A stretch of 42,414 bases of DNA from Dehalococcoidia bacterium (GCA_029936485.1 JAPYSM010000001.1:1-42414), one strand, 5' to 3'. Positions 1,063 to 42,176 are shown, counted from the first letter of the stretch. The notes: generated by a model not told the origin, from the letters alone. Numbers and translations: made by a program.

Positions 1063-1280
1063 TAGAACGGATGCTTTTTACTGATCCGGCGCAGCAAACA
1101 GGCCGCACAAGAATCCACTCGACCGATCGACGTGCCCATACCGCCTGACCAGGATTGCGAAGCCACCAATGCGTCATTAGAATCGTGGTCATCCGGTCCC
1201 CCGGGCCATGCCGGAACAGAATTCAGGAGCGATCACGATTCCCGATCTCACGTCATACACACGGGTGTACCATCTGAAGG

Positions 1281-2225: not shown

Positions 2226-2388
2226 TCGTCTCGCGTGGCCCACCGTCATTCGGTTGGACTATACGGAGCATCGGGAATCGGACTCACACGATTTGTAAAC
2301 AGGTGAATCCGGGCGTGTACCCGCAACCGTATGCCATTGTGGTGGACACTACGATGGACCGGTTGCAGCGCGCATTCGGCCCAGACAT

Positions 2389-3974: not shown

Positions 3975-4069
3975 ATGGCGGCGATCCAGCGCCGTGTATA
4001 TATCCCCGGCGACCCGAAGTTAGCTTGATATACTCCCGGCGCTGTCGAATTCCTTCTTGAGGCGTCGTC

Positions 4070-4207
4070 ATGGGCTCGATCAATACAACGTCTGCTCCCG
4101 CCCATTTGATCTGGGTATGTGATCTTTGCGGCACCGAGATGCTGGACCTCCACTGCAAGCTGCGGTGCCCGATATGCGGTTTCATGCGTGACTGCTCTGA
4201 CCCATAG
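4070..4207 (+). CDS. Small zinc-ribbon protein (45 aa), below the ORF-track size cutoff
   Basis: Hand translation gives MGSINTTSAPAHLIWVCDLCGTEMLDLHCKLRCPICGFMRDCSDP. It has two CxxC pairs (C17/C20, C33/C36) plus C29, C42, H12 and H28. GAGG lies 7 nt upstream of the ATG. The 3' end overlaps the likely lipoprotein start by 20 nt. Confidence 0.55.
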   Translation: MGSINTTSAPAHLIWVCDLCGTEMLDLHCKLRCPICGFMRDCSDP

Positions 4208-4919: not shown

Positions 4920-4934
4920 GCCGGGCGTGAACGC

Positions 4935-6401: not shown

Positions 6402-6598
6402 CAGCGCGTTAGGGACCTGGCCATCACGGGCTACCCGGATCGATATCGCATTGGCGAATTCAGAATTGTCGGTCTACCGCCGACAATCCTTTACGATGCG
6501 GACGGTATCTATGTGGCCACCAAAGGATCTTTGAGCGGCACGCGGTTGAATCGCACCATAACGTCGAATCTGGGGTTCAACGCGGGCAGCAACGGCTG
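6402..6598 (+). pseudogene. Possible C-terminal remnant of a TlpA/ResA-like thioredoxin-fold protein, in frame after the MFS TGA stop
   Basis: 66 codons stay open after the stop: QRVRDLAITGYPDRYRIGEFRIVGLPPTILYDADGIYVATKGSLSGTRLNRTITSNLGFNAGSNG. The cis-Pro region pattern (G-LP-T-L-D-DG-...-G) is present, but there is no CxxC part and no start codon. Confidence 0.3.
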
Positions 6599-6608
6599 AG
6601 CTTGGCCG

Positions 6609-8234: not shown

Positions 8235-8290
8235 TCTAGGGTTAGCCCGGTGATCAGAACAGATGCCGGCGTCAGATACTTCCCTCGCGT

Positions 8291-8317
8291 AAAGGCCCGC
8301 CGAGAAGGCGGGCCTTT
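8291..8317 (-). terminator. Hairpin terminator candidate downstream of the E2 gene
   Basis: AAAGGCCCGCC gagaa GGCGGGCCTTT forms an 11-bp stem. It is flanked by A/T, so a short U stretch follows on either strand. It lies 38 nt after the E2 stop. Confidence 0.6.
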
Positions 8318-8354
8318 ACATCCGGTGTCACGATGAAGTCTTTTCTTCCTCAAA

Positions 8355-9605: not shown

Positions 9606-9670
9606 TCCGGGGACCCTTTACTAAACATTAGGTGCGGGTGCGCTACGTATGTCGATGGTATCTGGCCTGT

Positions 9671-10648
9671 TTAAATGCCGTATGTTTTTTCGATTTCGTC
9701 GATCACCCACGCGACCTGGGGAATGCCCAGCTGCTCAAGCGGGCGTGAGTAGGGAGAGGGAGTATCTGTGCCGCCTACCCTTGCCACCGGACCGTCAAGA
9801 TAGTCCGAACTTCTATAGCCGATCTCGGCCGCGAGCTCTGCGCCAAAGCCAGCCGTACGCCAGTTCTCGTCCAGGACTAGCGCCCTGCCCGTCTTCTCGA
9901 CAGACTCGATAACCGTTTCCATGTCCAGCGGCCGCAATGACCTGAGGTCCACAACCTCAGCGCTAACTCCGGTCTCGGCGAGTTTCTCGGCCGCTGCCAT
10001 CAAGGTGACTATTCCGTGCGCCCAGCCGACAAGCGTTATATCAGTTCCGGTCCGTTTCACATCGGCGACGCCTATAGGGACAAGATATTCCCCGTCCGGG
10101 ACATCGCCCCTTGTCGCGTAGAGTAGAGCGTTTTCGGCGAATACAACTGGGTTGTCGTCTTCGATCGAACTTCGGAGAAGGCCCAGCGCATCGTACGGCG
10201 TGGATGGCGTGACGACCTTCAGGCCCGGAACCGATGCGTACCAGTTCTCGAACGATTGAGAATGTGTCGCCGCTAGCTGGACGCCACCGCCGGTCGGTGC
10301 CCGAAGGACCAGCGGCACCTTTAGCTGTCCGCCGGACATATATCGAATCTTAGCAGCCATGTTTACGATCTGGTCGGATGCCACGAGCGAGAAGCTCATC
10401 GACATCAGCTCGACCACAGGTCGTAGCCCCGCGACAGCGGCCCCGACTCCGGCCCCGACAAAGGCGGCTTCAGATATAGGCGTGTCCCGAACACGGTCTG
10501 GTCCGTACTTCTCAAGGAGACCCTGAGTAACGGCGTACGCACCGTCGTACTTGCCGATGTCTTCGCCCATCAGGAAAACATTGGGGTCAGCGTCTAGAGC
10601 CTCCCGTAATCCTCGTTGTAGGGCCTGTCTGAACGTAATTTCAGTCAT
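9671..10648 (-). CDS. pdhB: 2-oxoacid dehydrogenase E1 component, beta subunit
   Basis: 325 aa. The N-terminus MTEITFRQALQRGLREAL...FLMGEDIGKYDGAYAVTQGL is typical of E1 beta, and the Pyr and C-terminal domains are transketolase-like. Confidence 0.9.
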   Translation of the reverse strand: MTEITFRQALQRGLREALDADPNVFLMGEDIGKYDGAYAVTQGLLEKYGPDRVRDTPISEAAFVGAGVGAAVAGLRPVVELMSMSFSLVASDQIVNMAAKIRYMSGGQLKVPLVLRAPTGGGVQLAATHSQSFENWYASVPGLKVVTPSTPYDALGLLRSSIEDDNPVVFAENALLYATRGDVPDGEYLVPIGVADVKRTGTDITLVGWAHGIVTLMAAAEKLAETGVSAEVVDLRSLRPLDMETVIESVEKTGRALVLDENWRTAGFGAELAAEIGYRSSDYLDGPVARVGGTDTPSPYSRPLEQLGIPQVAWVIDEIEKTYGI

Positions 10649-10683
10649 GCATCAATCCCGCCATCTCGAAAAGGACGGCGATA

Positions 10684-11607
10684 TTAGGCGTAAATATCGG
10701 TGAAAAGTTCTTCGTCCGGCGGGAACGGGCTGTCCTCGGCAAACTTGATCGCGACAACCACTTCGGCGTCAACGCTGGAACGAATCTCTTCCATTTCTGC
10801 CTCTGTAAACAGGTTTTGGTCAAGGAGATCACGCGGGAACGTGTTCAGAGGGTCACGCGCCTCCCAGGCCTCCGTTTCCAATCTATCCCGGTACTTCACA
10901 GGATCAGCCATTGAGTGTCCCTGAAAACGGAATGTCTTGGCTTCGATAAATGCGGGACCGTTGCCGGACCGGATGCTTTCGAGCGCAAGTTTCGTTGCTT
11001 CTTGCACGGCCATGACATCCATCCCATCCACCACCGCTGTGTGATCGATGCCGTAGGTTGCAGCGCCCGGGTAAAAATCTTCACCGCCGGCTCGCACTCG
11101 ATCGAACCTCGAGCCCATACCGTAAAGGTTGTTCTCGAGGAAAAACAGGATGGGAAGTTTCCAGACCGCGGCGAGATTCATGACCTCGTGATATGTGCCT
11201 TGGTTGGTGGAGCCATCCCCGAAAAATACGACACAAACACCGTCGCTCTTCCGGTACTGGTGGGACAGGGCGAGACCGGCAGCGAGGGGGAACTGCCCCC
11301 CGACGATCGCATGGCCGCCGATAAAGCCCTTCTCCGTGTCAAAAAGGTGCATCGAACCGCCTTTGCCTTTGCTCAGGCCGTCGATGCGACCAAACAGCTC
11401 AGCCATAACGCGATTGGGGTCAAGGCCACGCGCCAATGCGTGGCCGTGGTCACGGTAGTGCGTAACGATGTAGTCATGCGGTAGAAGCTGGGAGATCGCG
11501 CCGACCGCAATCGCTTCTTCTCCAATGTACAGATGTAGGAATCCGCGGACCTGGCCTCGAGTGTACATCTCACCGGAGGCCTCTTCAAATTGGCGAATCA
11601 GGTACAT
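10684..11607 (-). CDS. pdhA: 2-oxoacid dehydrogenase E1 component, alpha subunit (TPP-binding); true start probably upstream at 11694
   Basis: TPP motif GDGSTNQGTYHEVMNLAAVWKLPILFFLENNLYGMG. The conserved N-terminal helix ELAELYRQMYLIRQFEE extends upstream of the ATG at 11607 (see finding). Confidence 0.9.
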   Translation of the reverse strand: MYLIRQFEEASGEMYTRGQVRGFLHLYIGEEAIAVGAISQLLPHDYIVTHYRDHGHALARGLDPNRVMAELFGRIDGLSKGKGGSMHLFDTEKGFIGGHAIVGGQFPLAAGLALSHQYRKSDGVCVVFFGDGSTNQGTYHEVMNLAAVWKLPILFFLENNLYGMGSRFDRVRAGGEDFYPGAATYGIDHTAVVDGMDVMAVQEATKLALESIRSGNGPAFIEAKTFRFQGHSMADPVKYRDRLETEAWEARDPLNTFPRDLLDQNLFTEAEMEEIRSSVDAEVVVAIKFAEDSPFPPDEELFTDIYA

Positions 11608-11825
11608 CTGCCGATAAAGTTCGGCCAGTTCCTGTTTTCTTGCGCCTTCCTCCGAATCTGTTTCGGAAGACGCCTGTTCTTTACTCTGAACGATCTCTCA
11701 ACCTCCACGCCATGAACTTAAGTAGACCACTTTGTTTTGATGGGTCCGCGGCGGCGGCTATCTTACTATAGAACCCTCAATCTTCTCGAATGAATCGAGC
11801 GATTGACCTACGTCCCTTTTGTTCT

Positions 11826-12689
11826 TTATTTACGGGCGCCCTCGTCAACCAGGCGCGCCGCCTGCATAACGTTCTTCAACAGCATCGCGATAGTCATCGG
11901 TCCCACCCCGCCAGGCACAGGGGTCCGCATCGATGCCACGTCCCGCACGTCAAGTGCCATATCTCCGGCGAGCCGCCATCCGCGCTCCCGTGACGGATCA
12001 TCTACCCGCACGGTTCCGACATCTATGACGACTGCGCCGTATTTAACCATCTCTTTCGTGATCAGTCCGGGCACACCCATGGCAGTGACCAGGATGTCCG
12101 CCTGTCTGGTAAACGATCCCAGATCTGCCGTCCGGGAGTGGCAGACAGTTACGGTGGCATCGCCTCCCTGTCCTCGTCTCAATAGCAGCGCCGCGAGCGG
12201 GCGCCCAACGATGTTGCTTCGTCCGCATATCACAACGTGTTTACCACTGGTGTCCACGCCTTCTTCCGCTAGCAACCTCAAGATTCCGCTCGGAGTCGCC
12301 GGAGCAAGTCGCGGTGCACCCCCTAACAAAAGACCCATGTTGAAAGGATGTAGGCCGTCAACGTCTTTATTCGGGTCAATAGCGTGCAACACGGTGTCTT
12401 CGTCGATGTGATCTGGCAACGGCAACTGCACCAAGAAACCGGTAATCCGGTCGTCAGAGTTCAGTTCGGAGATCACTTCAAGCAACTCATTTTGGGTCAC
12501 GTCCGCCGCCAGTTTCCGTGTCTCAGAGTGGATCCCGACTTCTACCGACGCCCGCTCTTTCCCGCGCACGTATGTCGCCGAAGCCGGATCCGCCCCTACC
12601 AGCACTACGGCTAATGCGGGCCGGCGATTACCTGCGAAAACCCACTCTTCAACCTCTCGGGCGACCTCGTTACGAACCTTCTCCGCCAC
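11826..12689 (-). CDS. folD: Bifunctional methylenetetrahydrofolate dehydrogenase/cyclohydrolase FolD; true start probably upstream at 12719
   Basis: Motifs ATYVRGKERA, CGRSNIVGRPLA and PGGVGPMTIAMLLKN. The conserved N-terminal IDGKAVA lies upstream of the GTG used by the ORF track (see finding). Confidence 0.95.
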   Translation of the reverse strand: MAEKVRNEVAREVEEWVFAGNRRPALAVVLVGADPASATYVRGKERASVEVGIHSETRKLAADVTQNELLEVISELNSDDRITGFLVQLPLPDHIDEDTVLHAIDPNKDVDGLHPFNMGLLLGGAPRLAPATPSGILRLLAEEGVDTSGKHVVICGRSNIVGRPLAALLLRRGQGGDATVTVCHSRTADLGSFTRQADILVTAMGVPGLITKEMVKYGAVVIDVGTVRVDDPSRERGWRLAGDMALDVRDVASMRTPVPGGVGPMTIAMLLKNVMQAARLVDEGARK

Positions 12690-12998
12690 GGCCTTCCCGT
12701 CGATGCGTTTAGCGCGGATGAGGACTCTCCTGAAGATTAGATATGAGGAATGTTCTGTGATTGTTGGGCGTTATGTTCGCACCGAAAATTCATCGTGATG
12801 TCAACTTGATAGAGGTTATCACCGGGGCGACGGATAGGATCGGTTTTCATCAGGGATAAGATGAGACCTCGGTAGGAGGAGAACGTTGCGGCCCATATAA
12901 TCGGCCCGTCGCCTCATCACTATCCCGCGGGCCGCAATCTTTTACGGACGGGAAATGGACATCAGGGTTCGCCACTACCGGGCCCGGGAGAACACAGT

Positions 12999-13397
12999 TT
13001 GTACGTCGGCGTGGACTTAATCGAGATCGAGCGGATTGGACTCACCTACTCCCGGTATCCACGCCGATTCTTGGAGAAGATATACACGCCCGCAGAGCGG
13101 GCCTATTGCAGGGGCAGGGCGCCCCAACTGGCCAGCCGATTTGCAGCGAAAGAGGCGGTGATGAAGGCACTAGGAACTGGCGTCCGTGGAGTTAGCTGGC
13201 GTGACATAGAAGTTCAGCGCAAACGCGGCCGTGCGCCGGAGATTGTGCTGCATGATCGGGCGAGGGCGCGTGCGAAGAGTATGGGAATTGTACGGATAGC
13301 CGTCAGTCTCTCCCACTCCCGCGAGTTTGCCATAGCCAGCGTCGTGGCCCAGACCGCCGATTCACCCGGCCCGGAGGGAAGGACGGCGCAGGATTGA
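12999..13397 (+). CDS. acpS: Holo-ACP synthase (4'-phosphopantetheinyl transferase)
   Basis: MYVGVDLIEIERI... and FAAKEAVMKALG motifs. TTG start with GGGAG 8 nt upstream. Confidence 0.9.
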   Translation: MYVGVDLIEIERIGLTYSRYPRRFLEKIYTPAERAYCRGRAPQLASRFAAKEAVMKALGTGVRGVSWRDIEVQRKRGRAPEIVLHDRARARAKSMGIVRIAVSLSHSREFAIASVVAQTADSPGPEGRTAQD

Positions 13398-14926
13398 AGG
13401 TAGTCACAACTCGGCAAATGCGGGAGCTTGAACAGGCGTCAGTCCGGGCAGGAGTATCGCTGGACGCCCTGATGGAGAACGCCGGGCTCGCGATAGCCGA
13501 AGCGTTACGCGACCGGCTGCCCGCATCTGCAACAGGTCCGACCCTGATTCTCATAGGTCCGGGTAATAACGGGTCTGACGGACTCGTCGCCGCCCGGCAT
13601 CTCGCGTCCAGTGGAATTGACGTAACCGCCTACCTGTTGATGATTCGCTGCGCTGAAGACAAAAAACTTGATCTTGCGGCCGCCGCCGGGGTGAAGGTGG
13701 TTCACGAATTCGAAGACGACGATCATTCATTGCTTATTGAAACGGTTTCGGAAGCGCTTGTGATCGTGGACGCGGTTTTGGGGACAGGGTGTGGCCGTCC
13801 GATTGAGCCACCGTTATCTGATCTTCTTCGTACTGTGCGAGATAACGCGAAAGCGCCGATAATCGCCGTGGATATAGCAACGGGGATGTCGACCGACACC
13901 GGGAACATGGACCCCAACGGACTGGGCGCCAGCGAAACACTTGTGCTTGGCCGGCCGAAGATAGGCCATTTCCTGGAACCGAGCGGCGCACCTCGGCGGT
14001 ACCTTGACATCGGCATTCCTGAGGGACTGGATGACGAGATCCAGACGGAACTTATGACCAGATCTTTGATGGGCAGGGTGGTCCCGGATCGAACTCCCCA
14101 ATCGAATAAAGGTACCTTCGGTCGGGCGCTCATCGTCGCTGGGTCAGAGAATTACGTCGGAGCGGCATATCTATGCAGCGCGGCCGCCGGGAGGTCCGGA
14201 GCAGGCCTTGTGACGTTGGCGCTACCGGACACGATTTACCCTCTCATCGCTTCCCGTCTCGCCGAGGCCACCTATATTCCTTTGGTCGAGCACAGCAGAA
14301 ACGTTATCGACTCTCACTTTGCCGCTGTACAGGTCACAGACGCCTCTCGCAGCGCATCATCACTGTTAATCGGTCCTGGCCTCGGCCAGACACCCTCGGC
14401 AGTTGAATTCGTTCGTGCGGTATTGCTGGACCGGCGCGAAGGGCCAAGCCTGGTTATCGATGCGGACGCGCTCAACTCACTTGCGTCAGTCGATTATTGG
14501 CAGGAACGAATTCAGGGCCCGGCAATCCTGACGCCCCATCCTGGCGAAATGGCACGGCTCCGGGGCTCAACCGTTCCCGAGGTAGAACGTGATCGTGTTC
14601 ATACCGCACAATCTGCTGCCGAAACGTGGCGGCATATCGTGGTGCTCAAGGGCGCCTGTACGGTTGTTGCCCATCCGGATGGACGAACGGCGATCAGTCC
14701 TTGGGTCAACCCGGGAATGGCGACCGGCGGAACAGGCGATGTGCTCGCCGGTCTGATAGCCGGATTCCTAGCTCAGGGGATGGAACCATTTGACGCGGCG
14801 ACGCTAGGCGTTTATGCCCACGGACTGGCTGGCGAGGTCGCAAAAAGGAGAGTTGGTGAAGTGTCGATGGTGGCTGGTGACGTATTGGAGTCGCTACCGG
14901 CGGCACTCAAAAAGATATCGGACTGA
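13394..14926 (+). CDS. nnr: Bifunctional NAD(P)H-hydrate repair enzyme (YjeF_N epimerase plus ADP-dependent dehydratase)
   Basis: N-domain GPGNNGSDG and C-domain GTGDVLAG. The TTG start overlaps the acpS stop. Confidence 0.9.
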   Translation: MKVVTTRQMRELEQASVRAGVSLDALMENAGLAIAEALRDRLPASATGPTLILIGPGNNGSDGLVAARHLASSGIDVTAYLLMIRCAEDKKLDLAAAAGVKVVHEFEDDDHSLLIETVSEALVIVDAVLGTGCGRPIEPPLSDLLRTVRDNAKAPIIAVDIATGMSTDTGNMDPNGLGASETLVLGRPKIGHFLEPSGAPRRYLDIGIPEGLDDEIQTELMTRSLMGRVVPDRTPQSNKGTFGRALIVAGSENYVGAAYLCSAAAGRSGAGLVTLALPDTIYPLIASRLAEATYIPLVEHSRNVIDSHFAAVQVTDASRSASSLLIGPGLGQTPSAVEFVRAVLLDRREGPSLVIDADALNSLASVDYWQERIQGPAILTPHPGEMARLRGSTVPEVERDRVHTAQSAAETWRHIVVLKGACTVVAHPDGRTAISPWVNPGMATGGTGDVLAGLIAGFLAQGMEPFDAATLGVYAHGLAGEVAKRRVGEVSMVAGDVLESLPAALKKISD

Positions 14927-14966
14927 CGGTAAGTATCCGCCCTAGCGCTGATATCATCCCCATATC

Positions 14967-15755
14967 GTGGGAAAACTCCTCGCCGTCGACGTCGGCAATT
15001 CAAACGTCACAATCGGGGCATTCGAAGACGACCGCCTGATAGCAACCTGGCGATTCGCCACCGATGCACGCCGAACCGCGGACGAACACAACCTGTTGTT
15101 ACAGGGAATGTTGAGTTCAAAACACGTTTCGCCGTCCGATTTTCCGGCTTCGGTCATGTGCTCGGTTGTCCCGCCGCTGACCGGGGCCGTAACAACCGCT
15201 CTGACGGAGATGCTTGGCACTTCGCCGATGGTGGTCGGACCGGGCACTCGCACCGGGATAAAGATCAACTACAACCGGCCGCAGGATGTCGGCACAGACC
15301 GAATTGCTGACGCGGTGGCCGCTCACCGGTTGTACGGAGGCCCATGCATCATCGTGGACATTGGAACGGCGACGGTGTTCGATGCCATCGGCAAGGACGC
15401 CCAGTATCTGGGCGGCGCGATTGCACCCGGGATGACGCTTGCCGCAGAGGCTTTGTACCGTGGGACATCGCAGTTGCGGCGCGTCGATTTGCAGGCGCCC
15501 GAGAACGCCATCGGGCGTAACACGACGGACGCAATGCGTTCCGGTCTCGTGTTTGGTTACGTAGGGCTAGTGGAAGGCATGGTCAAGCGATTCGCCTCCG
15601 AACTCAGCCCTGACGATCCTTCGGCGTGCCGGGTTATAGGTACCGGCGGACTCGCAAAAATCGTGGCGGCACAATCGGATGTTCTTCAAGAGGTGAACGA
15701 AGACCTGACACTTGTAGGTCTACGGATGCTTCATGAGTTGAACAGCGGAGATTAG
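14967..15755 (+). CDS. coaX: Type III pantothenate kinase
   Basis: LLAVDVGNSNVTIG, DIGTATVFD and GTGGLA ASKHA-fold motifs. GTG start with no clear SD. Confidence 0.9.
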   Translation: MGKLLAVDVGNSNVTIGAFEDDRLIATWRFATDARRTADEHNLLLQGMLSSKHVSPSDFPASVMCSVVPPLTGAVTTALTEMLGTSPMVVGPGTRTGIKINYNRPQDVGTDRIADAVAAHRLYGGPCIIVDIGTATVFDAIGKDAQYLGGAIAPGMTLAAEALYRGTSQLRRVDLQAPENAIGRNTTDAMRSGLVFGYVGLVEGMVKRFASELSPDDPSACRVIGTGGLAKIVAAQSDVLQEVNEDLTLVGLRMLHELNSGD

Positions 15756-15757
15756 CC

Positions 15758-16957
15758 GTGACGACAATACTTGACGGCAAGTCGATCGTTCTCGGAGTTA
15801 CCGGCAGCATCGCCGCGTTCAAGGCCGTCGATCTTGCAAGCAAACTCACCCAGGCCGGAGCGTCGGTAGATGTGGTGCTCACGCGCTCCGCCCAGGAGTT
15901 CGTTGGCGTCGCCACCTTTACTGGGCTGACCCACAGGCCCGTTTCCACGGGACTTTACGAGTCGAACTCCGAGCTTGGCATCGACCATGTGGCCCTGGCC
16001 CGCCGAGCCGATCTGATTTTGATAGCGCCGGCAACGGCGAACGTGATGGCGAAGCTCGCCCACGGAATAACCGACGATGTTTTGACTGCGACGATACTCG
16101 CCGGTTCGCAGCCGTTGGCGATCGCGCCCGCGATGGACGCCGACATGTACGGCGCAGCTGCGACGCAGGCCAACGTGGCGACGCTCAAAGAACGCGGTGT
16201 TCACTTCATCGGCCCCGAATCGGGACGACTGGCGTCGGGACTGGTCGGTAACGGACGCATGACGGAGGTCCCGGATATCATCGGTCATATACGGGCGCTG
16301 CTTGGACGGGACGGCGACATGTCCGGTCGTCGCGTGGTCGTATCCGCAGGCGGCACCGAGGAGGCGATAGACCCGGTTCGGGTGCTGACCAATCGTTCTA
16401 CCGGCAAGATGGGCTATGCCATCGCAGAAGCGGCAAGAGATCGCGGAGCGAAGGTCACGCTGATAAGTGCGCCGTCGTCGTTGCCCCGCCCCGCCTGTGT
16501 GACCTTGTTGCCGGTTTCAACTGCTATCGAAATGCGGGACGCAGTTCAGACCGCGAGCGCCGACGCCGATCTACTGGTGATGGCAGCCGCGGTGAGCGAT
16601 TACCGGCCCGCAAACCCGGCCGGTCAGAAAATCAAAAAGACCGGCGAGGATCCGCTCAGTATCGATCTGATCCAGAACCCGGACATACTCGCCGGGGTCA
16701 GCGGAAAACACCTGATCAAGGTGGCTTTCGCCGCCGAGACGAACGATCTCATAGAGAACGCCGACGCCAAGGTGCTTTCAAAAGGCGTTGATATGGTGGT
16801 CGCCAACGACGTTTCGGCCGCCGATTCCGGGTTCGGCACGGACACCAACGCCGTGACATTTGTCTATCCGGGCCGCGAGCCGGAGCCGATGCCTCTCATG
16901 GACAAGCTGGACGTCGGCAACGCCCTGTTGGACCGGGCGCTTCCGCTACTCAAATAA
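15758..16957 (+). CDS. coaBC: Bifunctional phosphopantothenoylcysteine decarboxylase / phosphopantothenate-cysteine ligase
   Basis: Flavoprotein N-domain VTGSIAAFK...PAMDADMY and C-domain SAGGTEEAIDPVRVLTNRSTGKMG. GTG start with GGAG 7 nt upstream. Confidence 0.95.
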   Translation: MTTILDGKSIVLGVTGSIAAFKAVDLASKLTQAGASVDVVLTRSAQEFVGVATFTGLTHRPVSTGLYESNSELGIDHVALARRADLILIAPATANVMAKLAHGITDDVLTATILAGSQPLAIAPAMDADMYGAAATQANVATLKERGVHFIGPESGRLASGLVGNGRMTEVPDIIGHIRALLGRDGDMSGRRVVVSAGGTEEAIDPVRVLTNRSTGKMGYAIAEAARDRGAKVTLISAPSSLPRPACVTLLPVSTAIEMRDAVQTASADADLLVMAAAVSDYRPANPAGQKIKKTGEDPLSIDLIQNPDILAGVSGKHLIKVAFAAETNDLIENADAKVLSKGVDMVVANDVSAADSGFGTDTNAVTFVYPGREPEPMPLMDKLDVGNALLDRALPLLK

Positions 16958-16996
16958 CAGCCACATCAAGACACGACGCAGGAGTTAATTCACACG

Positions 16997-17263
16997 ATGC
17001 GAATGTACTGGAAAGAGCACCCGAAAGGTCTCGACCTGACCCTTCTCATGGACGACGGCCAGGAAGTCAGTCTGGGCGGCGTTCGATCAATGAAACGCGG
17101 CATTCAGGCAATTGCTGCAACACGTGGCTACGATCCCGGCCGCGCAGTAAAAGGTCTGGCGTCCTTGGACGAGGGCAAAGAGTTTGTGCTCGGTTTTCAG
17201 CCTTGGCGCGAGTACGTGCCGAATGAACTGGAAGTAGAGCCGGAGATCGTAAAAGCGGAGTAA
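16997..17263 (+). CDS. Hypothetical 88-aa protein
   Basis: ORF in the same orientation as its neighbours and between them, with GGAG upstream. No recognisable motif. Confidence 0.4.
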   Translation: MRMYWKEHPKGLDLTLLMDDGQEVSLGGVRSMKRGIQAIAATRGYDPGRAVKGLASLDEGKEFVLGFQPWREYVPNELEVEPEIVKAE

Positions 17264-17268
17264 TTCGA

Positions 17269-17282
17269 CACGTAAATACGTG
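17269..17282. promoter_or_regulatory. 14-bp palindrome CACGTA-AA-TACGTG just upstream of kbl
   Basis: Perfect 6-bp inverted repeat with a 2-nt spacer, 26 nt upstream of the likely kbl start. The spacer is too short for an RNA hairpin, so it is more likely a protein-binding site. Confidence 0.3.
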
Positions 17283-17307
17283 AATATTGGGGCCAGGGAG
17301 CACACAT

Positions 17308-18495
17308 TTGGCTTACACAGCTATCAAGTCCTGGCTCGATTCCGAGCTGGACGATATACGGGCCGCCGGTCTGTTCAAGGCTGAGCAGGTTATCGAGACG
17401 CCACAGGGTGCTCGGGTGACGACCAACGCCGGGCCGCGCATCAACTTCTGCGCCAACAACTACCTCGGGCTTGCGGATCATCTAGAGATTCTGGAGGCGG
17501 TATCGTCCGGGCTCCAGAGCCACGGTTACGGCATGGCTTCCGTACGATTTATCTGCGGCACACAGGACATTCACAAGGAGCTGGAGGCCCGGATTAGCCA
17601 GTTCCTTGGGACAGAAGACACGATCCTCTACAGCTCTTGTTTCGACGCCAATACCGGCCTGTTTGAGACGCTGCTCGGCCGTGAAGACGCCGTCATCAGC
17701 GATGAACTGAACCACGCCTCGATCATCGACGGCATACGACTGTGCCGGGCCGACCGAAAGCGCTATCTTCATAGCGACATGGCCGATCTCGAAGCTAAGT
17801 TGCAGGAGTCCTCGGACGCCAGATTCAGGTTGATCGCCACCGACGGTGTGTTCAGCATGCAGGGCGATCTCGCAAAGCTGGAAGAGATCTGCGACCTGGC
17901 CGATAAGTACGACGCGATGGTGATGGTGGACGATTCCCACTCGACCGGGTTCGTCGGCCCGGGTGGGCGAGGCACGCCCGCACAGCTCGGCGTAGAGGGC
18001 CGTGTGGACATCATCACCAGCACGCTCGGCAAGGCGCTCGGGGGCGCATCAGGCGGGTTCACCACTGGCCATTCCGAGATCGTGTCCTATCTCCGTCAAC
18101 GTTCTCGCCCGTATCTGTTCTCAAACACCCTCCCACCGCTCGTTGTTGTGGGCGCGTTGAAGGCGTTGGAGCTGGTCGAACGGCATCCCGAACTTCGAGA
18201 GAGGTTATGGGCGAACACCCGCTATTTCCGTGACCGTATGACAGGTTTCGGTTTTGAACTTATCCCGGGCGATCATCCGATCGTCCCCGTGATGCTGCGG
18301 GACGAGATCAAGACGGTGGAGATGGCTGCGGCGATGAATCGGCGGGGCATCTTCGTCGTGGGATTCAGCTTCCCGGTTGTTCCGAGAGGCGAGGCCCGTA
18401 TCCGAGTCCAGATGTCGGCGGCGCACGATCGATCACAACTGGACGAAGCCCTGGATGCGTTCCAGGACGTCGGCGCAGAGTTGGGCGTGATTTGA
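17308..18495 (+). CDS. kbl: Glycine C-acetyltransferase (2-amino-3-ketobutyrate CoA ligase)
   Basis: The block [43 protein letters not shown] and the PLP-lysine region [14 protein letters not shown] closely match Kbl. The ORF track starts at TTG 17287, but the in-frame TTG 17308 has GGGAG 7 nt upstream. Confidence 0.9.
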
Positions 18496-19295
18496 GCTCA
18501 TCAACATTGAATTTCGATCCGTCACGACTGCCGACGCCATTCCCGGATGAACTGGCGGGAAAGGTCGCGGTCGTAACCGGCGCGGGACGTGGCATGGGAC
18601 GTGCCGTGGCCCTACGCCTTTCCGCTGCGGGTGCTTCGGTTGTGGTCAACGATCTGTCCGTGGAGGCGGCCGAGGCCACGGCCGTGATGTTGCGCGACGC
18701 CGGAGGCCGGGCGATCGCCATCAGCGGCAATGTCACGAACTCTTCCGATGTCGCCGCCGTAATGGACCGTGCGGTCTCCGGGTTCGGGGCGCTTCACATA
18801 CTGGTGAACGCGGCAGGCGTGCTTCGCCGGACCGCGGTGTTCGACATGGGCGAAGACGAGTGGGACTTCGTGATCGGCGTGAATCTGAAGGGCACGTTCC
18901 TGCCCTCCCGCGCCGTTCTTCCGGCGATGCGTGAAGCTGGATGGGGCCGCATCGTCAACTTCTCGTCCACCGCAGGCAAGACCACCAGCACTCTTGGCAG
19001 TGCCGCCTATACGTCTTCCAAGCACGCCGTACTGGGGCTCACACGCCACCTCGCGATGGAGGAGGCGTCACACGGCATCACCGTCAACGCGGTCTGCCCC
19101 GGCCTGATCGACACGGAGATGGTTCAGGACGAGATCGACGAGGCACGCAAGGCCGCATACGCCAATAGCTTTCCGATATCCCGCTTGGGCGAGCCCTCAG
19201 AGGTAGCGGAACTAGTCGCTTTCCTTGCGTCCGACCGCGCCGCCTACATCACGGGGGCAGCGCTGGACATAAGCGGCGGAGATTTGATGGTCTAG
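18492..19295 (+). CDS. Classical short-chain dehydrogenase/reductase (FabG-like), coupled to kbl
   Basis: TGAGRGMG cofactor motif, NAAG, and catalytic S...YTSSK. The start overlaps the kbl stop. Confidence 0.85.
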
Positions 19296-19378
19296 AGCGC
19301 TGGTTAACACCCCAATTTGATTCACCTTTTACCGTCATAAGGGCGGATGGCAATCCGCCTGTGGACGGGCCGCCGCTT

Positions 19379-19397
19379 GCGCCATATGCGCGTTTTT
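19379..19397 (+). terminator. Weak intrinsic terminator candidate after the kbl-SDR operon
   Basis: GCGC catat GCGC followed by GTTTTT. The stem is only 4 bp. Confidence 0.25.
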
Positions 19398-19429
19398 CGA
19401 CCATCGGGGTGATGTCAGGAGGAAGCCGC

Positions 19430-22093
19430 CTACGTCTCCTCCTGAATTTCCGCCAGGATCGTCGCAACGAAGCGCTCTCCGTCCATGTCACCCTCAATAA
19501 CGTCAACACCCGAAGCGTTCGCTCCATCGTTGACATCACTGATGACCCCGGTCAACACTGACAAACTATCGGCGTTGCCGGCAAGTGACAGCGATGCCAG
19601 AGGGCGGCCCATGCCTAGTCCCATGTCCGTCTTGGCCTTTCGAACGGCCGCAATAGCATCGCAAGCCACAGCGAACGAGTCATCGCTATTAGGGTCAGGT
19701 ATGCCTTCAAACTCGGCTGCCGACGGCCAATCCGCTATGTGAATCGACTGTTTGCCGGTTTGTTCAGCGAAAGTCCATGACCAGACATCGTCGGTGATCG
19801 TGGGGACGAATGGAGCGAACAGCCGCATCGTCACATTCAGCCCCAAACGAAGCGTCGCTATCGCCGACGCCCTGCCCTCCGGGTCCTCGTCCGTACGGGT
19901 TCGCTTTTTGACAAGCTCAAGGTAGTTATCGGTGAACGCACTCCAGAAGAACGATTCGGTCTCTTCCAGCGCACGTGAGTACTCAAACTCCTCGAACGCC
20001 GCGGTGGCGCGCTCGACCAGCTTCTTCAACTCGGCAATAAACGCAAGATCGAGCTCGTTCGTGATCTCGCCCTCGGGACCTTCTTGCGACAACACAAACT
20101 TGCCGGCGTTGTAGATTTTCGTGACGAGTCGTTTGCCCACCCGGAATACCTGCTCATCAAATGCAGTGTCCGCGCCCAGACGTGCACTCCCCGCCCAGTA
20201 GCGGATCGCGTCTGCGCCGTACTCCTCTAGCATCCCGGTCGGCGTCACCACGTTACCGCGGCTCTTGCTCATCTTCTTGCGGTCCGGATCCAGGATCCAG
20301 CCGCTGAGCACGACGTTGTGCCACGGAACCTCGTCGTGGTGGAGCATCGACTTGGCGATCGTGTAGAACGCCCATGTCCGGATGATGTCGTGCGCCTGTG
20401 GGCGGACATCCATCGGGAACAGATTGTCCATCTTGTCCCCATCCTGGCCCCAGCGAGCGCCGATCTGTGGGGAGAGTGAGCTTGTGAACCATGTGTCGAA
20501 AACATCAGGCTCTCCGGCGAATCCACCCGGCTGCCCGCGTTGCGACTCTTCAAAGCCAGGCGCCACCGAGGACATCGGGTCCATTGGCAGCATTTCTCGC
20601 GTTGCCAGGATCGGATCCGAGTAGACCGGATTCGCCTGATCATCCAGTCGGTACCAGACCGGGAACTGGACTCCAAAATACCGTTGCCGGCTGATCGCCC
20701 AGTCCAGCCCGAGGTTTGCGGTCCAGTCTTCGTAGCGCTTGCCCATGTAGGCGGGGTGCCACTTGATCTGCCGGCCCTTCTCGATGAGCTGGTCCTTCTT
20801 GTCCATCAGGCGAACAAACCATTGGCGGCTGGTCAGGTATTCGAGAGGACTATCACCCTTCTCAAAGAAACGCACGGCGTGTTTGATCCGGCGCGGTTCG
20901 CCCTGGAGCGGTGCATCACCGCCTGCGATGGCCGCGTTGGCAGAGTCTTGGAGTTGCTCAACGACGATTCGTCGGGCCTGGTTGACGCGCTTGCCGATGA
21001 TCTCGGCGTAGTTGGCGTTGGCGAGTTCAGGGTCGTTGCTCTCCCAGCCGTCGTCTCCGTAGTGGCGATCGACGATGAGTCCGTTGCGGCCCAGCACCTG
21101 TCGCAGCTGCAGCGACTGCTCACGCCACCACTGCACGTCTGTCTGGTCTCCGAAGGAACAGACCATCAACACGCCGGTGCCCTTTTCGGGGTCGGCCAGC
21201 TCGGTCGCGAAGATCGGCACCGGCACGCGGTAAACCGGGGAAATCGCCATCTTGCCGAATAGCGACTTGTAGCGCTCATCATCCGGGTGCGCGGCGATTC
21301 CTACGCACGCCGCCAGTAGCTCCGGCCGGGTGGTGGCGATTACAAAGCTGCCGCCGTCTTCTGTCCCGAACTCAATATCGTGGAACGCTCCGTCGCGCTC
21401 ACGGTCTTCGACCTCCGCCTGCGCTACCGCGGTAGCGAAATCGACATCCCACATCGTGGGAGCATCGACCTGGTAGATGTAGCCCTTCTCGTAAAGGTCC
21501 AGGAAGCTGAGCTGGGCGATGCCACGTGATCGGTCGTCGATCGTGGCGTACTCCTCGTTCCAGTCGACCGAAAGCCCGAGCATCTTCCACAGGTCTTTGA
21601 AGGCCACCTCGTCTTCCGCCGTGACGATGTGACACAGCTCGATGAAGTTTCTGCGGGAGATCACCGTCGGGCGCGGGAGGTCCCGGGGCTTCGTTTTCGG
21701 GTCCACGCGTTCGACCTTGAGGTCCCCGTCGTACGCCATGAACGGGTCGGATCGGACGTTGAACACGTTCTGGACACGTCGTTCCGTGGGAAGGCCGTTG
21801 TCGTCCCAGCCCATCGGGTAAAAGATGTTCCGGCCCTTCATCCGCTGATAACGAACGATCAGATCCTGGTGTGTGTACGAGAACACGTGGCCCACGTGCA
21901 GAGAACCGCTGGCGGTGGGCGGCGGTGTATCGACAACGAAGGTCTCTTCCCGCGGACGCGACGGGTCAAAACTGTGGATTCCCCACTCGTCCCATAGCGC
22001 ACGCCAGCGCGGCTCCGCCTCTTCCGGCTCGAAGCGCCGGGGCAGTGCCGATACGTCGACCGGCTTCACCCATTTTCGTTCCGTCGTTGCCAT
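19430..22093 (-). CDS. valS: Valine--tRNA ligase
   Basis: HIGH-type motif HVGHVFSYTHQD and KMSKS. The ORF track starts at 22126, but ATG 22093 (MATTERKW...) has AGGA 7 nt upstream and leaves room after the leader terminator. Confidence 0.95.
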   Translation of the reverse strand: MATTERKWVKPVDVSALPRRFEPEEAEPRWRALWDEWGIHSFDPSRPREETFVVDTPPPTASGSLHVGHVFSYTHQDLIVRYQRMKGRNIFYPMGWDDNGLPTERRVQNVFNVRSDPFMAYDGDLKVERVDPKTKPRDLPRPTVISRRNFIELCHIVTAEDEVAFKDLWKMLGLSVDWNEEYATIDDRSRGIAQLSFLDLYEKGYIYQVDAPTMWDVDFATAVAQAEVEDRERDGAFHDIEFGTEDGGSFVIATTRPELLAACVGIAAHPDDERYKSLFGKMAISPVYRVPVPIFATELADPEKGTGVLMVCSFGDQTDVQWWREQSLQLRQVLGRNGLIVDRHYGDDGWESNDPELANANYAEIIGKRVNQARRIVVEQLQDSANAAIAGGDAPLQGEPRRIKHAVRFFEKGDSPLEYLTSRQWFVRLMDKKDQLIEKGRQIKWHPAYMGKRYEDWTANLGLDWAISRQRYFGVQFPVWYRLDDQANPVYSDPILATREMLPMDPMSSVAPGFEESQRGQPGGFAGEPDVFDTWFTSSLSPQIGARWGQDGDKMDNLFPMDVRPQAHDIIRTWAFYTIAKSMLHHDEVPWHNVVLSGWILDPDRKKMSKSRGNVVTPTGMLEEYGADAIRYWAGSARLGADTAFDEQVFRVGKRLVTKIYNAGKFVLSQEGPEGEITNELDLAFIAELKKLVERATAAFEEFEYSRALEETESFFWSAFTDNYLELVKKRTRTDEDPEGRASAIATLRLGLNVTMRLFAPFVPTITDDVWSWTFAEQTGKQSIHIADWPSAAEFEGIPDPNSDDSFAVACDAIAAVRKAKTDMGLGMGRPLASLSLAGNADSLSVLTGVISDVNDGANASGVDVIEGDMDGERFVATILAEIQEET

Positions 22094-22137
22094 TATTTGT
22101 CCTGTATCTGATCTTGATACCACCATAAAACGGCGGG

Positions 22138-22170
22138 AAATAAAAAACCCCGTCCCTCAAAGGACGGGGC
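22138..22170 (-). terminator. Intrinsic terminator of the T-box leader
   Basis: Minus strand CCCCGUCC uuugag GGACGGGG followed by UUUUUUAUUU, ending 45 nt before ATG 22093. Confidence 0.85.
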
Positions 22171-22390
22171 GTTTCGCCTCGCGGTACCACCTTCGTTGCC
22201 TTGACCTGATTGCAAATCAAGACCACTCGATGCTGTTAACGGTAGCTGCCGTTCACCCCTTACTCGTTGTTCGAGTTCAGGCTGACCGCTCCGGGATGAC
22301 TTCTCGTCTGGCATGTGGCGCCGGGATCACAGCATCCCCGGCTCTCTCTTGCCTGCCACTGCGGTACTACTTCCCATCTCTGCGTTACAT
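22138..22390 (-). promoter_or_regulatory. T-box riboswitch leader (Val specifier GUC) controlling valS
   Basis: On the minus strand: AGAGAG-type Stem I elements; specifier loop ...GAGAA-GUC-A... with GUC at 22300..22298; a Stem III hairpin (CUUGAUU ugc AAUCAGG); the T-box core AACGAAGGUGGUACCGCG at 22197..22180; then the terminator. Confidence 0.85.
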
Positions 22391-22393
22391 TTG

Positions 22394-22423
22394 ACGCTAG
22401 CACGAGGCGACGCAGGAGGTCAA
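22394..22423 (-). promoter_or_regulatory. Candidate sigma-70 promoter for the T-box/valS transcript
   Basis: Minus strand TTGACC (22423..22418), an 18-nt spacer, then TAGCGT (22399..22394). Confidence 0.3.
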
Positions 22424-22463
22424 TCTGCCGAATCCGTAGCCGAGATGTTTTCGCACCTTGCTA

Positions 22464-23348
22464 TTACGTACGAACCGGGCGGCGGGTCATTCGTCTTGCG
22501 TAGCGTGGAGGCGACTCATACGTGTGGAGGTCGCCGAGATCTATGAATGGCCTGGTGGCAGTCTCGTCTCTGTTTTTTCGTGCCTGGGCTAGTCGCATGC
22601 GTTCCAAAATCTCCAGCCCCTTGCGCGTGTCGCTGGCGATACGAGCCGGATCTGCCTTCTTGAACCGCCGCTGGAACAACCAGTACGTAAAATGGTCTAC
22701 GTTGCTCAGATTGCCAGTTGCACGTTCCGGGCCACGCGACTGTCGACGCACCTTCCGACCGGTCTCTCCCCCGAACTCGGTTATCAACTCGGCACGTGTT
22801 GCGCCGTAAAGGATTTCATAGGCCACGTCGGCTCCGACATCATCCGGCGCAAAGCCGCGGGCATATCGTCGTTTTCGGACCTCTTCTTCCACGGCCAGCA
22901 AAATCGCCTGTTCAACCGTGACCCCGTAGAAGTAGTTGAGGAATCCCGCGCCCTTTGCGAATCCAATTAGCCGACGAAACTCTTCTTCCTTCAATCCGGC
23001 AGGAAGCGCCCAGTCAAGTAACAGCTGCTCCCGATCTTCCTCAGGGATCGGGATGTCGCGGGCCTTGAGAATTCGTTCCGCAAGAGACCGCCAGTCGAAA
23101 GCTTCACCCGCAAGTAGATATACAAAATTCCGGCCATCGATCTGCTCGGACGCCAGAGGCCACAGCGCCATCGTCTCGATGAGCGACAGGCGCCAGTCCC
23201 TGCCGGGGTCGCCCACTGCCATCCGGAACCTCTCGAGGAGTTCCTCTGGATCCGTGGCCGCTGCCTCGGCCGTGATCACTTCACCGGACTCGATCGGCTG
23301 AAGTTCCTCCGGCTCTAGTGGTTCGCCTGGACCCGGTATCGGCGTCAT
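22464..23348 (-). CDS. Hypothetical 294-aa protein translationally coupled to polX
   Basis: The ATG overlaps the polX stop (ATGA). The N-terminus is acidic and the C-terminus basic. I recognised no motif. Confidence 0.6.
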   Translation of the reverse strand: MTPIPGPGEPLEPEELQPIESGEVITAEAAATDPEELLERFRMAVGDPGRDWRLSLIETMALWPLASEQIDGRNFVYLLAGEAFDWRSLAERILKARDIPIPEEDREQLLLDWALPAGLKEEEFRRLIGFAKGAGFLNYFYGVTVEQAILLAVEEEVRKRRYARGFAPDDVGADVAYEILYGATRAELITEFGGETGRKVRRQSRGPERATGNLSNVDHFTYWLFQRRFKKADPARIASDTRKGLEILERMRLAQARKNRDETATRPFIDLGDLHTYESPPRYARRMTRRPVRT

Positions 23349-29400: not shown

Positions 29401-29763
29401 CTAATCGAGGGAGAGGGCTTCCAGATCCGCCGCCTTTCCTCCCAGCACATATCGGCTAGTATCGTCTATCCGTATCGTGATCGGACGTCGGATCAATCGC
29501 GGTTCTTTCATCATCAGATTTATCAGGTCTGACTTAGTAAGATCGTCCTTGTTTTCCCGGTACTGCTTCGCACTTGGGCTGCGCCATGAAAACAACTCAT
29601 CAATCGTTACGATAGAACCCAGTTCTTGAAGTTCTTCCCGGGAAAGTGGGTCTCTGAAGAAATCGCGTTGATCTAACTCAACACCTGCTTGCGAGAGCAC
29701 CGCCCCCGCTTTTTTACAGGTGCTTCACCGTGTCCAGTGATAGAACCGCACTTTTACTGCCAT
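29401..29763 (-). CDS. ArsC/Spx/YffB-family thioredoxin-fold protein with in-frame TGA (candidate selenocysteine, U-S-T-C motif)
   Basis: ATG 29763 with AGGA 8 nt upstream. The translation is MAVKVRFYHWTR-[TGA 29727..29725]-STCKKAGAVLSQAGVELDQRDFF...LIRRPITI. The TGA sits at the position of the family's N-terminal redox Cys. The ORF track shows only the fragment 29401..29700. Confidence 0.6.
29681..29724 (-). promoter_or_regulatory. SECIS-like stem-loop immediately 3' of the in-frame TGA
   Basis: Fold A pairs AGCACC (29724..29719) with GGUGCU (29701..29696). Fold B has an outer stem GCACCUG/CAGGUGU and an inner stem GCGGG/CUCGC, with apical loop GGCGGUGCU carrying GGU 24-26 nt after the UGA. 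Confidence 0.4.
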
Positions 29764-30391
29764 AGAACTGTCCTTAATCTGCTGGAATGTGCACCGGGAG
29801 ACCAAGCCAATGGTCTTGCCTCAGATTTGAGGAGCATCGCATAGTGTTACGTCCGATGATTGTGATGTCCGCAACACCTCTCCTCTCCGGCGAAATCAGA
29901 TGTTCCCCGCGACCCGCACTCGACGAATACTTACGTTGCCCGAATAGTTTCGCCAATATGAGCGTATCCGCGTTCGGCCTGTCAACAGTCTAGATCCCGG
30001 TCAACAGAGTCCTACTCTAGTTTCGCGTCCTGGCTATCGCAGAAGTCGATCAGAAATAGGGGATGCTCGGGGCCATCGATGTCTATCCCGCCGGCTAGAT
30101 ATCGAACCGATTTGGCCGCAAACGTGTCTTGTACGGGTCATCGTTCGTGATAGCCGTCGTCGCCGAGCTGTTCGTTGTGGTGAACACGATCGTGCTCCTA
30201 GTGATTCTTGCCCATATTTTCAGGATCAGGGATGCGGTGAACAGACAATGGGAAAACATTGGGTATGACTCCCTGATAATCGGTATCCACGCGATGTCCT
30301 ATCCATCTATCCGCTTTGACAGGCTAGGAACGGTCTCTATCGGGCGAGCGCGGTCTTGAGTTGAAACAGGCGCAGACGGACCAGTCGTACG

Positions 30392-40760: not shown

Positions 40761-42176
40761 ATGCCCGATAGCGACATCTGTTTCACGCCAGCGACCGAGC
40801 AGGCGCGCATGGTGCGGGGCGGTGAAATCTCTGCCGTTGAGCTGATGCAGGCGCATCTCGATCAGATCGAGCGCGTTAATCCGACTGTTAATGCAGTGGT
40901 GACGCTAGTAGCCGACGAGGCACTTGCCGGTGCTGCCGAGGCAGATCAAAGTCGGGCGCGTGGCGACGAGTTCGGACCGCTACACGGATTACCGACCGGA
41001 ATCAAGGACCTTATCGCAACCAGAGGTATCCGGACGACGATGGGGTCCCCGATTTTCGCAGACAACGTCCCTGATGCCGACGCCGGCATCGTGAGCCGAA
41101 TGAAATCGGCCGGGGCGATCGTGATTGGCAAAACCAACACCCCCGAGTTCGGCGCAGGCTCCCAGACCTTCAATCAGGTTTTCGGGGCGACACTCAATCC
41201 GTACGACACGTCCCGCACTTGCGGGGGCAGCAGTGGAGGTTCTGGCGTCGGGCTGGCTTGCGGCATGTTCTCTACTACCGTCGGGACCGATCTCGGCGGC
41301 TCGTTACGAAATCCAGCAGCCTGGTCAAACGTGGTCGGTTTACGACCCTCCCCGGGACGTGTGCCCGCCGCGGGCGCTCTGCCGTGGACGTCAATGAGCA
41401 CCGCCGGCCCGATGGGTCGCACAGTCGCCGACGTGGCGTTGCAACTCTCCGTGCAGGCCGGTCCTGACCCGCTAGTCCCTTCCTCGTTGCACGAAGATCC
41501 GGATCGGTTCGCTGACGCGCTGGGACGAGATTTTGCAGGGACCCGAATCGCATGGAGCCGGGATCTTGGCGGCCGTCCTATTGAGCCGGTCCAGACAGAC
41601 GTTCTGGACGCCCAACGGCATGTTTTCGAGGACATCGGCTGCATCGTTGAAGACGCTGAACCGGACCTCCGTGGGTCAGATTCGGTGTTCCAGGTTTTGC
41701 GTGCGTACTCGTTCGCACACGGTCAGGAACGTCACCTGATAGAGCACAGGGATTTGCTCAAGGACACAGTCATCTGGAACGCCGAAGAGGGTCTCGCTTT
41801 GAGTGCGTTAGACGTGGCGAAGGCGGAGGAGGAACGGACCAGGCTATTCGGTCTGATGATCGCATTCTTCGATGAGTACGATTTCCTGGCGCTACCGGTG
41901 ACGAGCCTGCCGCCGTTCTCGGTGGATATCCCTTACCCGACGGTAGTGAACGGTGTGGAGATGGAGACGTATATCGACTGGATGTGGCCATGCATGGATA
42001 TCACCGTCGTCGCCTGTCCCGCAATTTCAGTACCGGCCGGGTTCACGCCTGACGGCCTTCCCGTAGGTCTCCAGCTTGTATCCGCGCCACGGACAGACTT
42101 CGAACTTCTACAACTGGCGCACGCGTTCGAGGGAGCCACAGGGTTCTGGAAGCAGCGACCGGGAGTGGTGGGTTAG
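40761..42176 (+). CDS. Amidase-signature family amidase
   Basis: GGSSGGSG signature, catalytic Lys context GIKDLI, 471 aa. Confidence 0.9.
   Translation: MPDSDICFTPATEQARMVRGGEISAVELMQAHLDQIERVNPTVNAVVTLVADEALAGAAEADQSRARGDEFGPLHGLPTGIKDLIATRGIRTTMGSPIFADNVPDADAGIVSRMKSAGAIVIGKTNTPEFGAGSQTFNQVFGATLNPYDTSRTCGGSSGGSGVGLACGMFSTTVGTDLGGSLRNPAAWSNVVGLRPSPGRVPAAGALPWTSMSTAGPMGRTVADVALQLSVQAGPDPLVPSSLHEDPDRFADALGRDFAGTRIAWSRDLGGRPIEPVQTDVLDAQRHVFEDIGCIVEDAEPDLRGSDSVFQVLRAYSFAHGQERHLIEHRDLLKDTVIWNAEEGLALSALDVAKAEEERTRLFGLMIAFFDEYDFLALPVTSLPPFSVDIPYPTVVNGVEMETYIDWMWPCMDITVVACPAISVPAGFTPDGLPVGLQLVSAPRTDFELLQLAHAFEGATGFWKQRPGVVG

Follow-up and report, generated by a model that had tools for sequence, protein, structure and literature searches.

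An in-frame UGA in an ArsC/Spx-family gene of a Dehalococcoidia bacterium very probably encodes selenocysteine and is followed by a SECIS-type hairpin

The minus strand of the window, by which we mean the whole stretch of 42,414 nucleotides analyzed here from a marine Dehalococcoidia bacterium of the SAR202 type (GCA_029936485.1 JAPYSM010000001.1:1-42414), very probably carries at 29763..29401 a single intact gene that encodes a selenoprotein of 120 residues, a member of the ArsC/Spx/YffB thioredoxin-like superfamily, and in which a UGA codon is read as Sec13 by means of a SECIS-type hairpin. A candidate UxxC selenoprotein had been proposed at this place in the initial annotation, and the proposal is borne out by the alignment of Cys with the TGA, by the conservation of TGA or TGY among relatives, by coding-type selection upstream of the codon and by a covarying hairpin that is specific to the Sec forms.

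The reading frame and its protein family

Read 5' to 3' on the minus strand, the frame comprises an AAGGA, a gap of 7 nt, ATG, eleven codons, TGA, AGC ACC TGT and, at its end, TAG. The coding sequence (29401..29763, 120 codons including that of Sec13, plus the stop codon) runs from the ATG at 29761..29763, which is regarded as the true start, to the TAG at 29403..29401, and its translation consists of MAVKVRFYHWTR, the TGA, STCKKAGAVLSQAGVELDQRDFFRDPLSREELQELGSIVTIDELFSWRSPSAKQYRENKDDLTKSDLINLMMKEPRLIRRPITIRIDDTSRYVLGGKAADLEALSLD and the final stop, which makes 120 residues when the TGA is counted. The TGA thus stands between MAVKVRFYHWTR and STCKKAG, with LIRRPI farther on and SLD as the last residues, and the initial Met together with the following K-V-R-F-Y-x-W is kept in the orthologous loci. 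The in-frame TGA (29725..29727, minus strand) would provide U13, the first residue of a U-S-T-C redox motif, and the TGT at 29716..29718 of the same strand encodes Cys16, the predicted resolving cysteine of the UxxC, which shows no variation among 83 unique Sec contexts or among the Cys homologs. The principal readings of the initial annotation hold at this level: the TGA at 29727..29725 with an upstream ATG at 29763 is present on the minus strand in both sequence and translation; the Shine-Dalgarno sequence claimed for this ATG is found as the AAGGA at 29771..29775, 7 nt 5' of the start, a direct reading of the sequence that is called Shine-Dalgarno-like on its match to the consensus; and the mechanical ORF list gives, as had been stated, 29401..29700 alone, a 99-residue ORF initiated at GTG.

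TGA is the terminator of 10 of the 31 genes in the window, so that the genetic code is the standard one and any recoding would be site-specific; a reassigned code, which was considered as a candidate explanation, is ruled out by this normal use of TGA. Around the selenoprotein gene, the scan for promoters and terminators returned results at chance level, and a blind search for further ORFs bridged by a TGA in the window, which produced 237 candidates, had no discriminating power.

With Cys in place of the TGA, the window product matches the Pfam ArsC family (PF03960) above the gathering threshold, reaching 51 bits (cutoff 24) along residues 8-108; this match spans the TGA, in agreement with the earlier claim of homology on both sides of it. 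The best NCBIfam model is TIGR01617 (Spx/MgsR, 'arsC_related'), with which the window protein scores 69.1 bits, just under the cutoff of 75.05, and when eight other members of the subfamily were compared with the same model three passed (78.1, 82.0 and 85.5) and five fell below (62-71), the branch straddling the cutoff of 75.05. NF041106 scored 26.7 bits on the window protein against a cutoff of 85 and, on eight other members, either 31-41 bits (<42) or without a match at E<=1e-5. In a comparison of the family profile with the PDB, Spx structures came at the top with 62-65 bits, followed by ArsC-related proteins, YffB and R773 ArsC. Cys13 and Cys16 are invariant in 11 full-length homologs, and the column of Cys13 is that of the TGA in all of them, which answers the alignment check that had been proposed. 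Likewise, the placing of the TGA at the N-terminal redox Cys of the ArsC/Spx family, from which a U-S-T-C motif would follow, agrees with the position of C10 and C13 of Spx opposite U13 and C16.

The structure modeled was that of a Cys ortholog (P0029, 51% identical to the window protein), standing in for the window protein itself. In the AlphaFold model (pLDDT 92) a strand at 6-9 is followed by a helix at 14-25, which would place residue 13 at the N-terminus of helix 1, the canonical redox position of the thioredoxin fold. Foldseek searches with this model returned TM scores of 0.87 for YffB, 0.83 for Spx, 0.85 for an ArsC-related protein of B. fragilis and 0.73 for R773 ArsC. With a predicted structure as the query, the fold search confirms the superfamily but cannot separate its Spx-like, YffB-like and ArsC-like branches.

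Conservation of the codon, the hairpin and the locus

The homolog set comprised 166 sequences, of which 160 were obtained by scanning a genome and a metagenome collection and taking the best 80 matches of each; among these best 80 matches per collection, all 160 further loci belong to Dehalococcoidia, Chloroflexota or SAR202 MAGs. Across the 166 sampled loci, whose products are 40-95% identical to the window protein, the catalytic codon is TGA in 127, TGC in 27 and TGT in 12 (39 Cys codons), and TAA or TAG in none. The initial annotation had proposed to look among relatives for TGA or TGC/TGT within conserved flanks, and it is this pattern that emerges, with 127 TGA, 39 TGY and no other stop. 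In the 83 unique Sec contexts no variation of the TGA was detected, and the codons of the conserved upstream residues F-6, Y-5, W-3 and R-1 are fixed at positions 1 and 2 and variable at position 3, the signature of a translated region. The decay upstream of 29700 that had been named as a possible objection is therefore not the case, the region being under coding-type purifying selection. Two syntenic contigs, of 250 kb and 138 kb, retain the TGA next to synonymous changes in the adjoining codons (CGG to CGC; GTG CGG TTC to GTT CGT TTT). The occurrence of the same TGA, with coding conservation on either side, in 127 of the 166 sampled loci appears far beyond chance, and the comparative data indicate that the UGA is translated, at the nucleophile position of a CxxC-type motif.

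A bacterial SECIS element is a stem-loop located shortly 3' of the UGA, with a G-containing apical loop. In the window (numbering with the U of the UGA as +1), an upper hairpin of this type begins 15 nt after the UGA, its 8-bp stem being predicted at +19..+26/+30..+37 (29691..29709, minus strand) and its apical loop, GGU, at 29701..29699. The stem is supported by folding, by covariation and by RNAalifold, which predicted it independently. In an alignment of 40 diverse Sec forms, 94.1% of the cells of the upper helix are paired and compensatory double changes are found in four of the eight pairs (C-G to U-A, G-C to A-U and A-U to C-G); the observed covariation score or percentage paired was matched by none of 500 shuffles, and registers slid by 1-3 columns gave 36-53% pairing for the whole structure. 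With the register fixed, at least 7 of the 8 pairs are formed by 54 of the 56 unique Sec forms of one group (group A). Sequences of the SAR202 type (group B; loci L067-L085 and L112-L152) have a 5-bp hairpin, GGCCC-GUC-GGGCU at +18..+30, which is complete in 28 of 29 unique sequences and lies about 4 nt nearer the UGA than the 8-bp hairpin of the window clade; this shorter hairpin is nearly invariant and hence essentially without covariation. None of the 35 unique Cys sequences reached the threshold for either hairpin, and the Cys forms have a lower folding stability in the hairpin region. The loop is G-first in 117 of the 127 Sec loci, and in seven Sec forms the loop is UUU, where the customary G is missing. 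The SECIS model is consequently not uniform across the family, as both these UUU loops and the shorter, shifted SAR202 hairpin make plain.

Around the upper hairpin, the centroid structure of the window and its close relatives contains an extended stem (29680..29724, minus strand) with a lower helix at +4..+12/+40..+48. Family-wide, 61.9% of the cells of the lower helix are paired; it is a clade-specific, weakly supported element, and this degree of pairing rules it out as a feature of the whole family. A search of Rfam gave no family match for the hairpin, the one match returned being at chance level and to an unrelated sRNA (14.7 bits against 40).

The upper hairpin lies inside the coding sequence, and part of its conservation is protein constraint. 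In the double changes one arm is altered at the amino-acid level and its partner synonymously, a combination that speaks for selection at the RNA level. Conserved, covarying and specific to the Sec forms, the hairpin fits a bacterial SECIS element, and its distance and loop would also agree with the published bSECIS model. Its 3' arm (29691-29699, minus strand) encodes Leu-Ser-Gln, and 'LSQ' is present in nearly all group-A Sec forms and in none of the sampled Cys forms; the tripeptide looks like a constraint of RNA structure imprinted on the protein sequence.

About 70 Sec and about 35 Cys loci have the same neighbors, with a divergent ispH upstream, prs and secA downstream and, in many cases, an MFS transporter, and this shared ispH/prs/secA neighborhood makes the Sec and the Cys forms orthologs at a single housekeeping locus. 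No ars operon or ars Pfam family was seen among the neighbors in the syntenic loci examined. A midpoint-rooted NJ tree was built from 141 unique proteins with the catalytic residue masked, the sample being the best 80 matches per collection. On this simple tree parsimony puts Sec at the root and requires at least three changes from Sec to Cys, distributed over one large Cys clade and two singletons, a result that is suggestive of Sec as the ancestral state in the ortholog group.

Several other features of the locus and of the window were recorded. Between the selenoprotein gene and prs, 480 nt (28919-29400) are devoid of a convincing ORF, and at the corresponding place (10492-11208) a syntenic contig of 86% identity (L001) has a 238-aa gene without a Pfam match, the difference reflecting either the loss or gain of a gene or a failure to call one. 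Two ORFs had no Pfam match at E<=1e-5, one of 266 aa at 4119-4919 (plus strand) and one of 294 aa at 22464-23348 (minus strand), the latter keeping its synteny beside a PolX-like gene in L001 and in a further locus, L002. A T-box leader at 22157-22389 (minus strand; RF00230, 107 bits against a cutoff of 93) lies directly upstream of an adjoining gene for a class I aminoacyl-tRNA synthetase of 898 aa (19430..22126). Furthermore, a 541-aa ORF at 6609-8234 (minus strand) contains two stretches that match ThyX (Pfam Thy1), the best at residues 318-503; it is longer than a typical single-domain ThyX and may represent a tandem or fused double ThyX.

Selenocysteine machinery and alternative readings

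The statement in the initial annotation that the window holds no selA, selB, selC or selD agrees with our results, given that no tRNA was found in it and that the Pfam annotation shows no family of the Sec machinery. SelA, SelB and SelD domains are absent from the annotation of 20 window ORFs (43..23348 and 40761..42176), which are housekeeping genes or have no match, and the window genes at 23345-40692, read through the Pfam tags of the syntenic locus L001, likewise include no Sec-machinery family. Neither selA, selB and selD nor tRNA-Sec were found in the window or in the approximately 1.1 Mb of largely syntenic flanks that were scanned. ARAGORN detected no tRNA-Sec in the window or in any of the fetched loci, nor did a separate run on 60 loci, a result that is uninformative because these loci are almost without any tRNA genes. 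Of the ten bacteria richest in selenoprotein genes in BSepDB, two are Dehalococcoidia MAGs, one with 49 such genes and the other with 46 (PMC13326102), and from this literature on the class we infer that the present organism would possess the machinery.

Recoding of the UGA to a residue other than Sec, either by a SelC-like tRNA carrying Cys or by near-cognate readthrough with Trp or Cys, would yield a full-length protein free of selenium. Insertion of Cys by SelC-like tRNAs in a manner dependent on SelB and SECIS has been described in some bacteria, the comparative data prove only the translation of the UGA and the need for the downstream hairpin and not the identity of the residue, and no gene of the Sec machinery came to light in the window or the scanned flanks. 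Nevertheless, the hairpin has the geometry of a bacterial SECIS and a G-first loop, the sole alternative codon is that of Cys, which makes the classic Sec/Cys pair, and Dehalococcoidia are documented as heavy users of Sec (PMC13326102). If Cys were the outcome, a stop codon combined with an RNA element would have no obvious advantage over a plain TGC, and we consider a recoding of this kind improbable. Even less probable is a functional product that starts at the GTG of 29700 and has 99 residues, the upstream 36 nt and the TGA then being an untranslated leader. Both the ORF list and the retrieved public calls begin 3' of the TGA, but such a product would lose strand 1 and the family-invariant CxxC, as the initial annotation had already pointed out in stating that the fragment lacks the first beta-strand and the active site. 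Moreover, the upstream codons vary at their third position while the amino acids F, Y, W and R are kept, and the supposed start is inconsistent among orthologs, with calls of 67, 91, 93 and 99 aa. The GTG itself (29698..29700, minus strand), from which gene callers begin the 99-residue ORF, falls within the apical loop and closing pair of the SECIS-type hairpin, and is not the real start; the 12 N-terminal codons farther upstream are preserved in the manner of coding sequence.

Seen within one sequence, a single in-frame stop has the look of a fresh pseudogene, in which the TGA would be a recent inactivating mutation of a Cys codon. The same TGA occurs in 127 loci whose proteins are down to 40% identical and which have neither frameshifts nor further stops, and on the NJ tree Sec appears as the ancestral state with at least three changes to Cys, so that this explanation retains a negligible probability. 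The same applies to a sequencing or assembly error: TGA is one base from TGC or TGT, either of which would be the true codon, and the initial annotation had itself raised this objection, which is countered by the presence of the TGA in independent assemblies from many projects and platforms, chromosome-level MAG assemblies among them. Taken together with the standard code, the comparative codon data leave effectively no room for a pseudogene or an assembly error, for a reassigned code or for a true start downstream of the TGA, and the reading of the UGA as Sec within an intact gene is the one retained below.

Proposed function, annotation and comparison with known systems

From the mechanism established in bacteria we expect that, during translation, the hairpin located 15 nt after the UGA, with its G-first triloop, would serve as a bacterial SECIS element and recruit SelB-GTP-Sec-tRNA(Sec) to the approaching ribosome, whereupon the UGA would be read as Sec and not as a stop. 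Sec13 would lie where strand 1 turns into helix 1, and it and Cys16 would pass reversibly from a selenol/thiol pair to a selenenylsulfide. The protein would then be a small cytoplasmic redox protein, acting either as a reductase of the thiol-disulfide type or as a redox switch. The lack of an ars operon, and of a conserved counterpart (by eye) for the third Arg of the arsenate site of ArsC, makes a general redox role likelier than arsenate reduction, which on this sequence evidence is unlikely for the window protein. It is also doubtful that the members of the branch act as regulators in the manner of Spx, binding RNA polymerase and sensing redox state by a selenenylsulfide switch and not by a disulfide, since the residue aligned with Gly52 of Spx is not conserved in the Sec forms (by eye) and Sec is typically used at catalytic sites. 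Were this the case, a selenoprotein would be acting as a transcription factor, with Sec as the majority and apparently ancestral state in the sampled Dehalococcoidia/SAR202.

The closest database relatives of the protein are nearly all called as fragments of 67, 91, 93 or 99 residues, and those at a greater distance (48-59% identity) have their full length and carry CSTC or CTTC. Among the proteins recovered by the protein search (P0001-P0067), the Sec-form orthologs (for example P0003, P0026 and P0033) are all mis-called, either as truncated products of 67-102 aa or as a readthrough with Trp. The latter is illustrated by P0003, which reads '...HWARWTTCKK...', that is, with the TGA taken as Trp under another code table, and which has Trp also at the real stop. 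In the NCBI record of one truncated Sec-form ortholog, the fragment is named 'hypothetical protein'. None of the curated NCBIfam models tested covers the branch as a selenoprotein, and a dedicated model that includes both hairpin types would correct the annotation in many SAR202/Dehalococcoidia genomes.

Sec predominates in the subfamily (127 of the 166 sampled loci), which is unusual. With Sec as the root state, and with Cys having replaced it only about three times at a conserved housekeeping locus, the subfamily would offer a clean natural system for the replacement of Sec by Cys, and the ortholog group is also suited to the study of how a SECIS within the coding sequence constrains the protein, as in the case of LSQ. 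Of interest are the predominance and possible ancestral status of Sec, the occurrence of two SECIS variants and the closeness of the branch to Spx, on the Spx/MgsR side of the superfamily. The finding is a further instance of the heavy use of selenium by the Chloroflexota that abound in the deep ocean, and it leaves general concepts unchanged.

ArsC-like selenoproteins in bacterial genomes were reported in 2006 (PMC1794560), and the GOS metagenome study distinguished 'Arsenate reductase 1, UxxS', with 77 sequences, from 'Arsenate reductase 2, UxxC', with 42 sequences (PMC2398784); ArsC-like selenoproteins with UxxC or UxxS are therefore established (PMC2398784, PMC13188914). The model NF041106 (ArsC_rel_Se_1) corresponds to the GOS 'Arsenate reductase 2, UxxC' (PMC2398784) and to the 'Arsenate reductase-like protein' (PMC13188914). 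With this group the window protein shares the PF03960 fold, a UxxC at the same structural position, a small single domain, an occurrence in marine metagenomes and the alternation of Sec and Cys. In contrast, a GOS ArsC-2 read scores 116 bits with NF041106 (cutoff 85) and the window protein 26.7, and in a pairwise comparison the GOS ArsC-2 resembles the window protein only over a stretch of 26 residues about the motif. In addition, the signature peptides SWRSPS and LIRRPI were not found in the part of the GOS sequence set that was searched. The identification of the gene with the GOS 'Arsenate reductase 2' was considered, and it is ruled out by the NF041106 scores, the 26-residue extent of the similarity and the absence of the signature peptides from that part of the GOS set.

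Spx/MgsR proteins (TIGR01617; Spx of B. subtilis, PDB 1Z3E and 3GFK) provide the best sequence model (62-85 bits) and the best PDB matches. The CxxC is in the same place (C10/C13 in Spx), an Arg aligns with R60 of Spx, the TM score is 0.83 and the LLRRPI motif is shared with Spx, which bears out the earlier remark that the LIRRP motif fits the family. The window protein differs from Spx in having Sec for the first Cys, in its score of 69.1 against the cutoff of 75.05, in being devoid of the C-terminal extension of Spx and in its lineage, which is Chloroflexota and not Firmicutes. Furthermore, Gly52 of Spx, which is needed for binding to the C-terminal domain of the RNA polymerase alpha subunit, aligns by eye with a Thr in the window protein and with variable residues in the Sec forms.

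The ArsC of the R773 type (TIGR00014), of which 'Arsenate reductase 1, UxxS' is the Sec form (PMC2398784), is similar in fold (TM 0.73) and in the position of the nucleophile, which is that of Cys12 in ArsC. The two differ in that the window protein scores 41.2 bits against a cutoff of 106, that its motif is UxxC and not UxxS, and that ars genes are not found nearby. In a comparison by eye with the R773 sequence, Arg107 of ArsC has no conserved counterpart in the branch. YffB (PA3664, PDB 1RW1; NF008107) is the best structural match (TM 0.87), has a similar size and also bears an N-terminal motif of the CxxC type, but the window protein scores 31.5 bits against the cutoff of 121 of NF008107, and the function of YffB itself is not settled.

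In the literature that we searched, neither an Spx-like family containing Sec nor selenoproteins of SAR202 in particular were described, and BSepDB may well hold these genes under 'arsenate reductase-like'. Considered against these systems, the branch is a new, uncurated member of the known UxxC selenoproteins of the ArsC/Spx superfamily, from a lineage rich in Sec, and as such it will not surprise the specialist.
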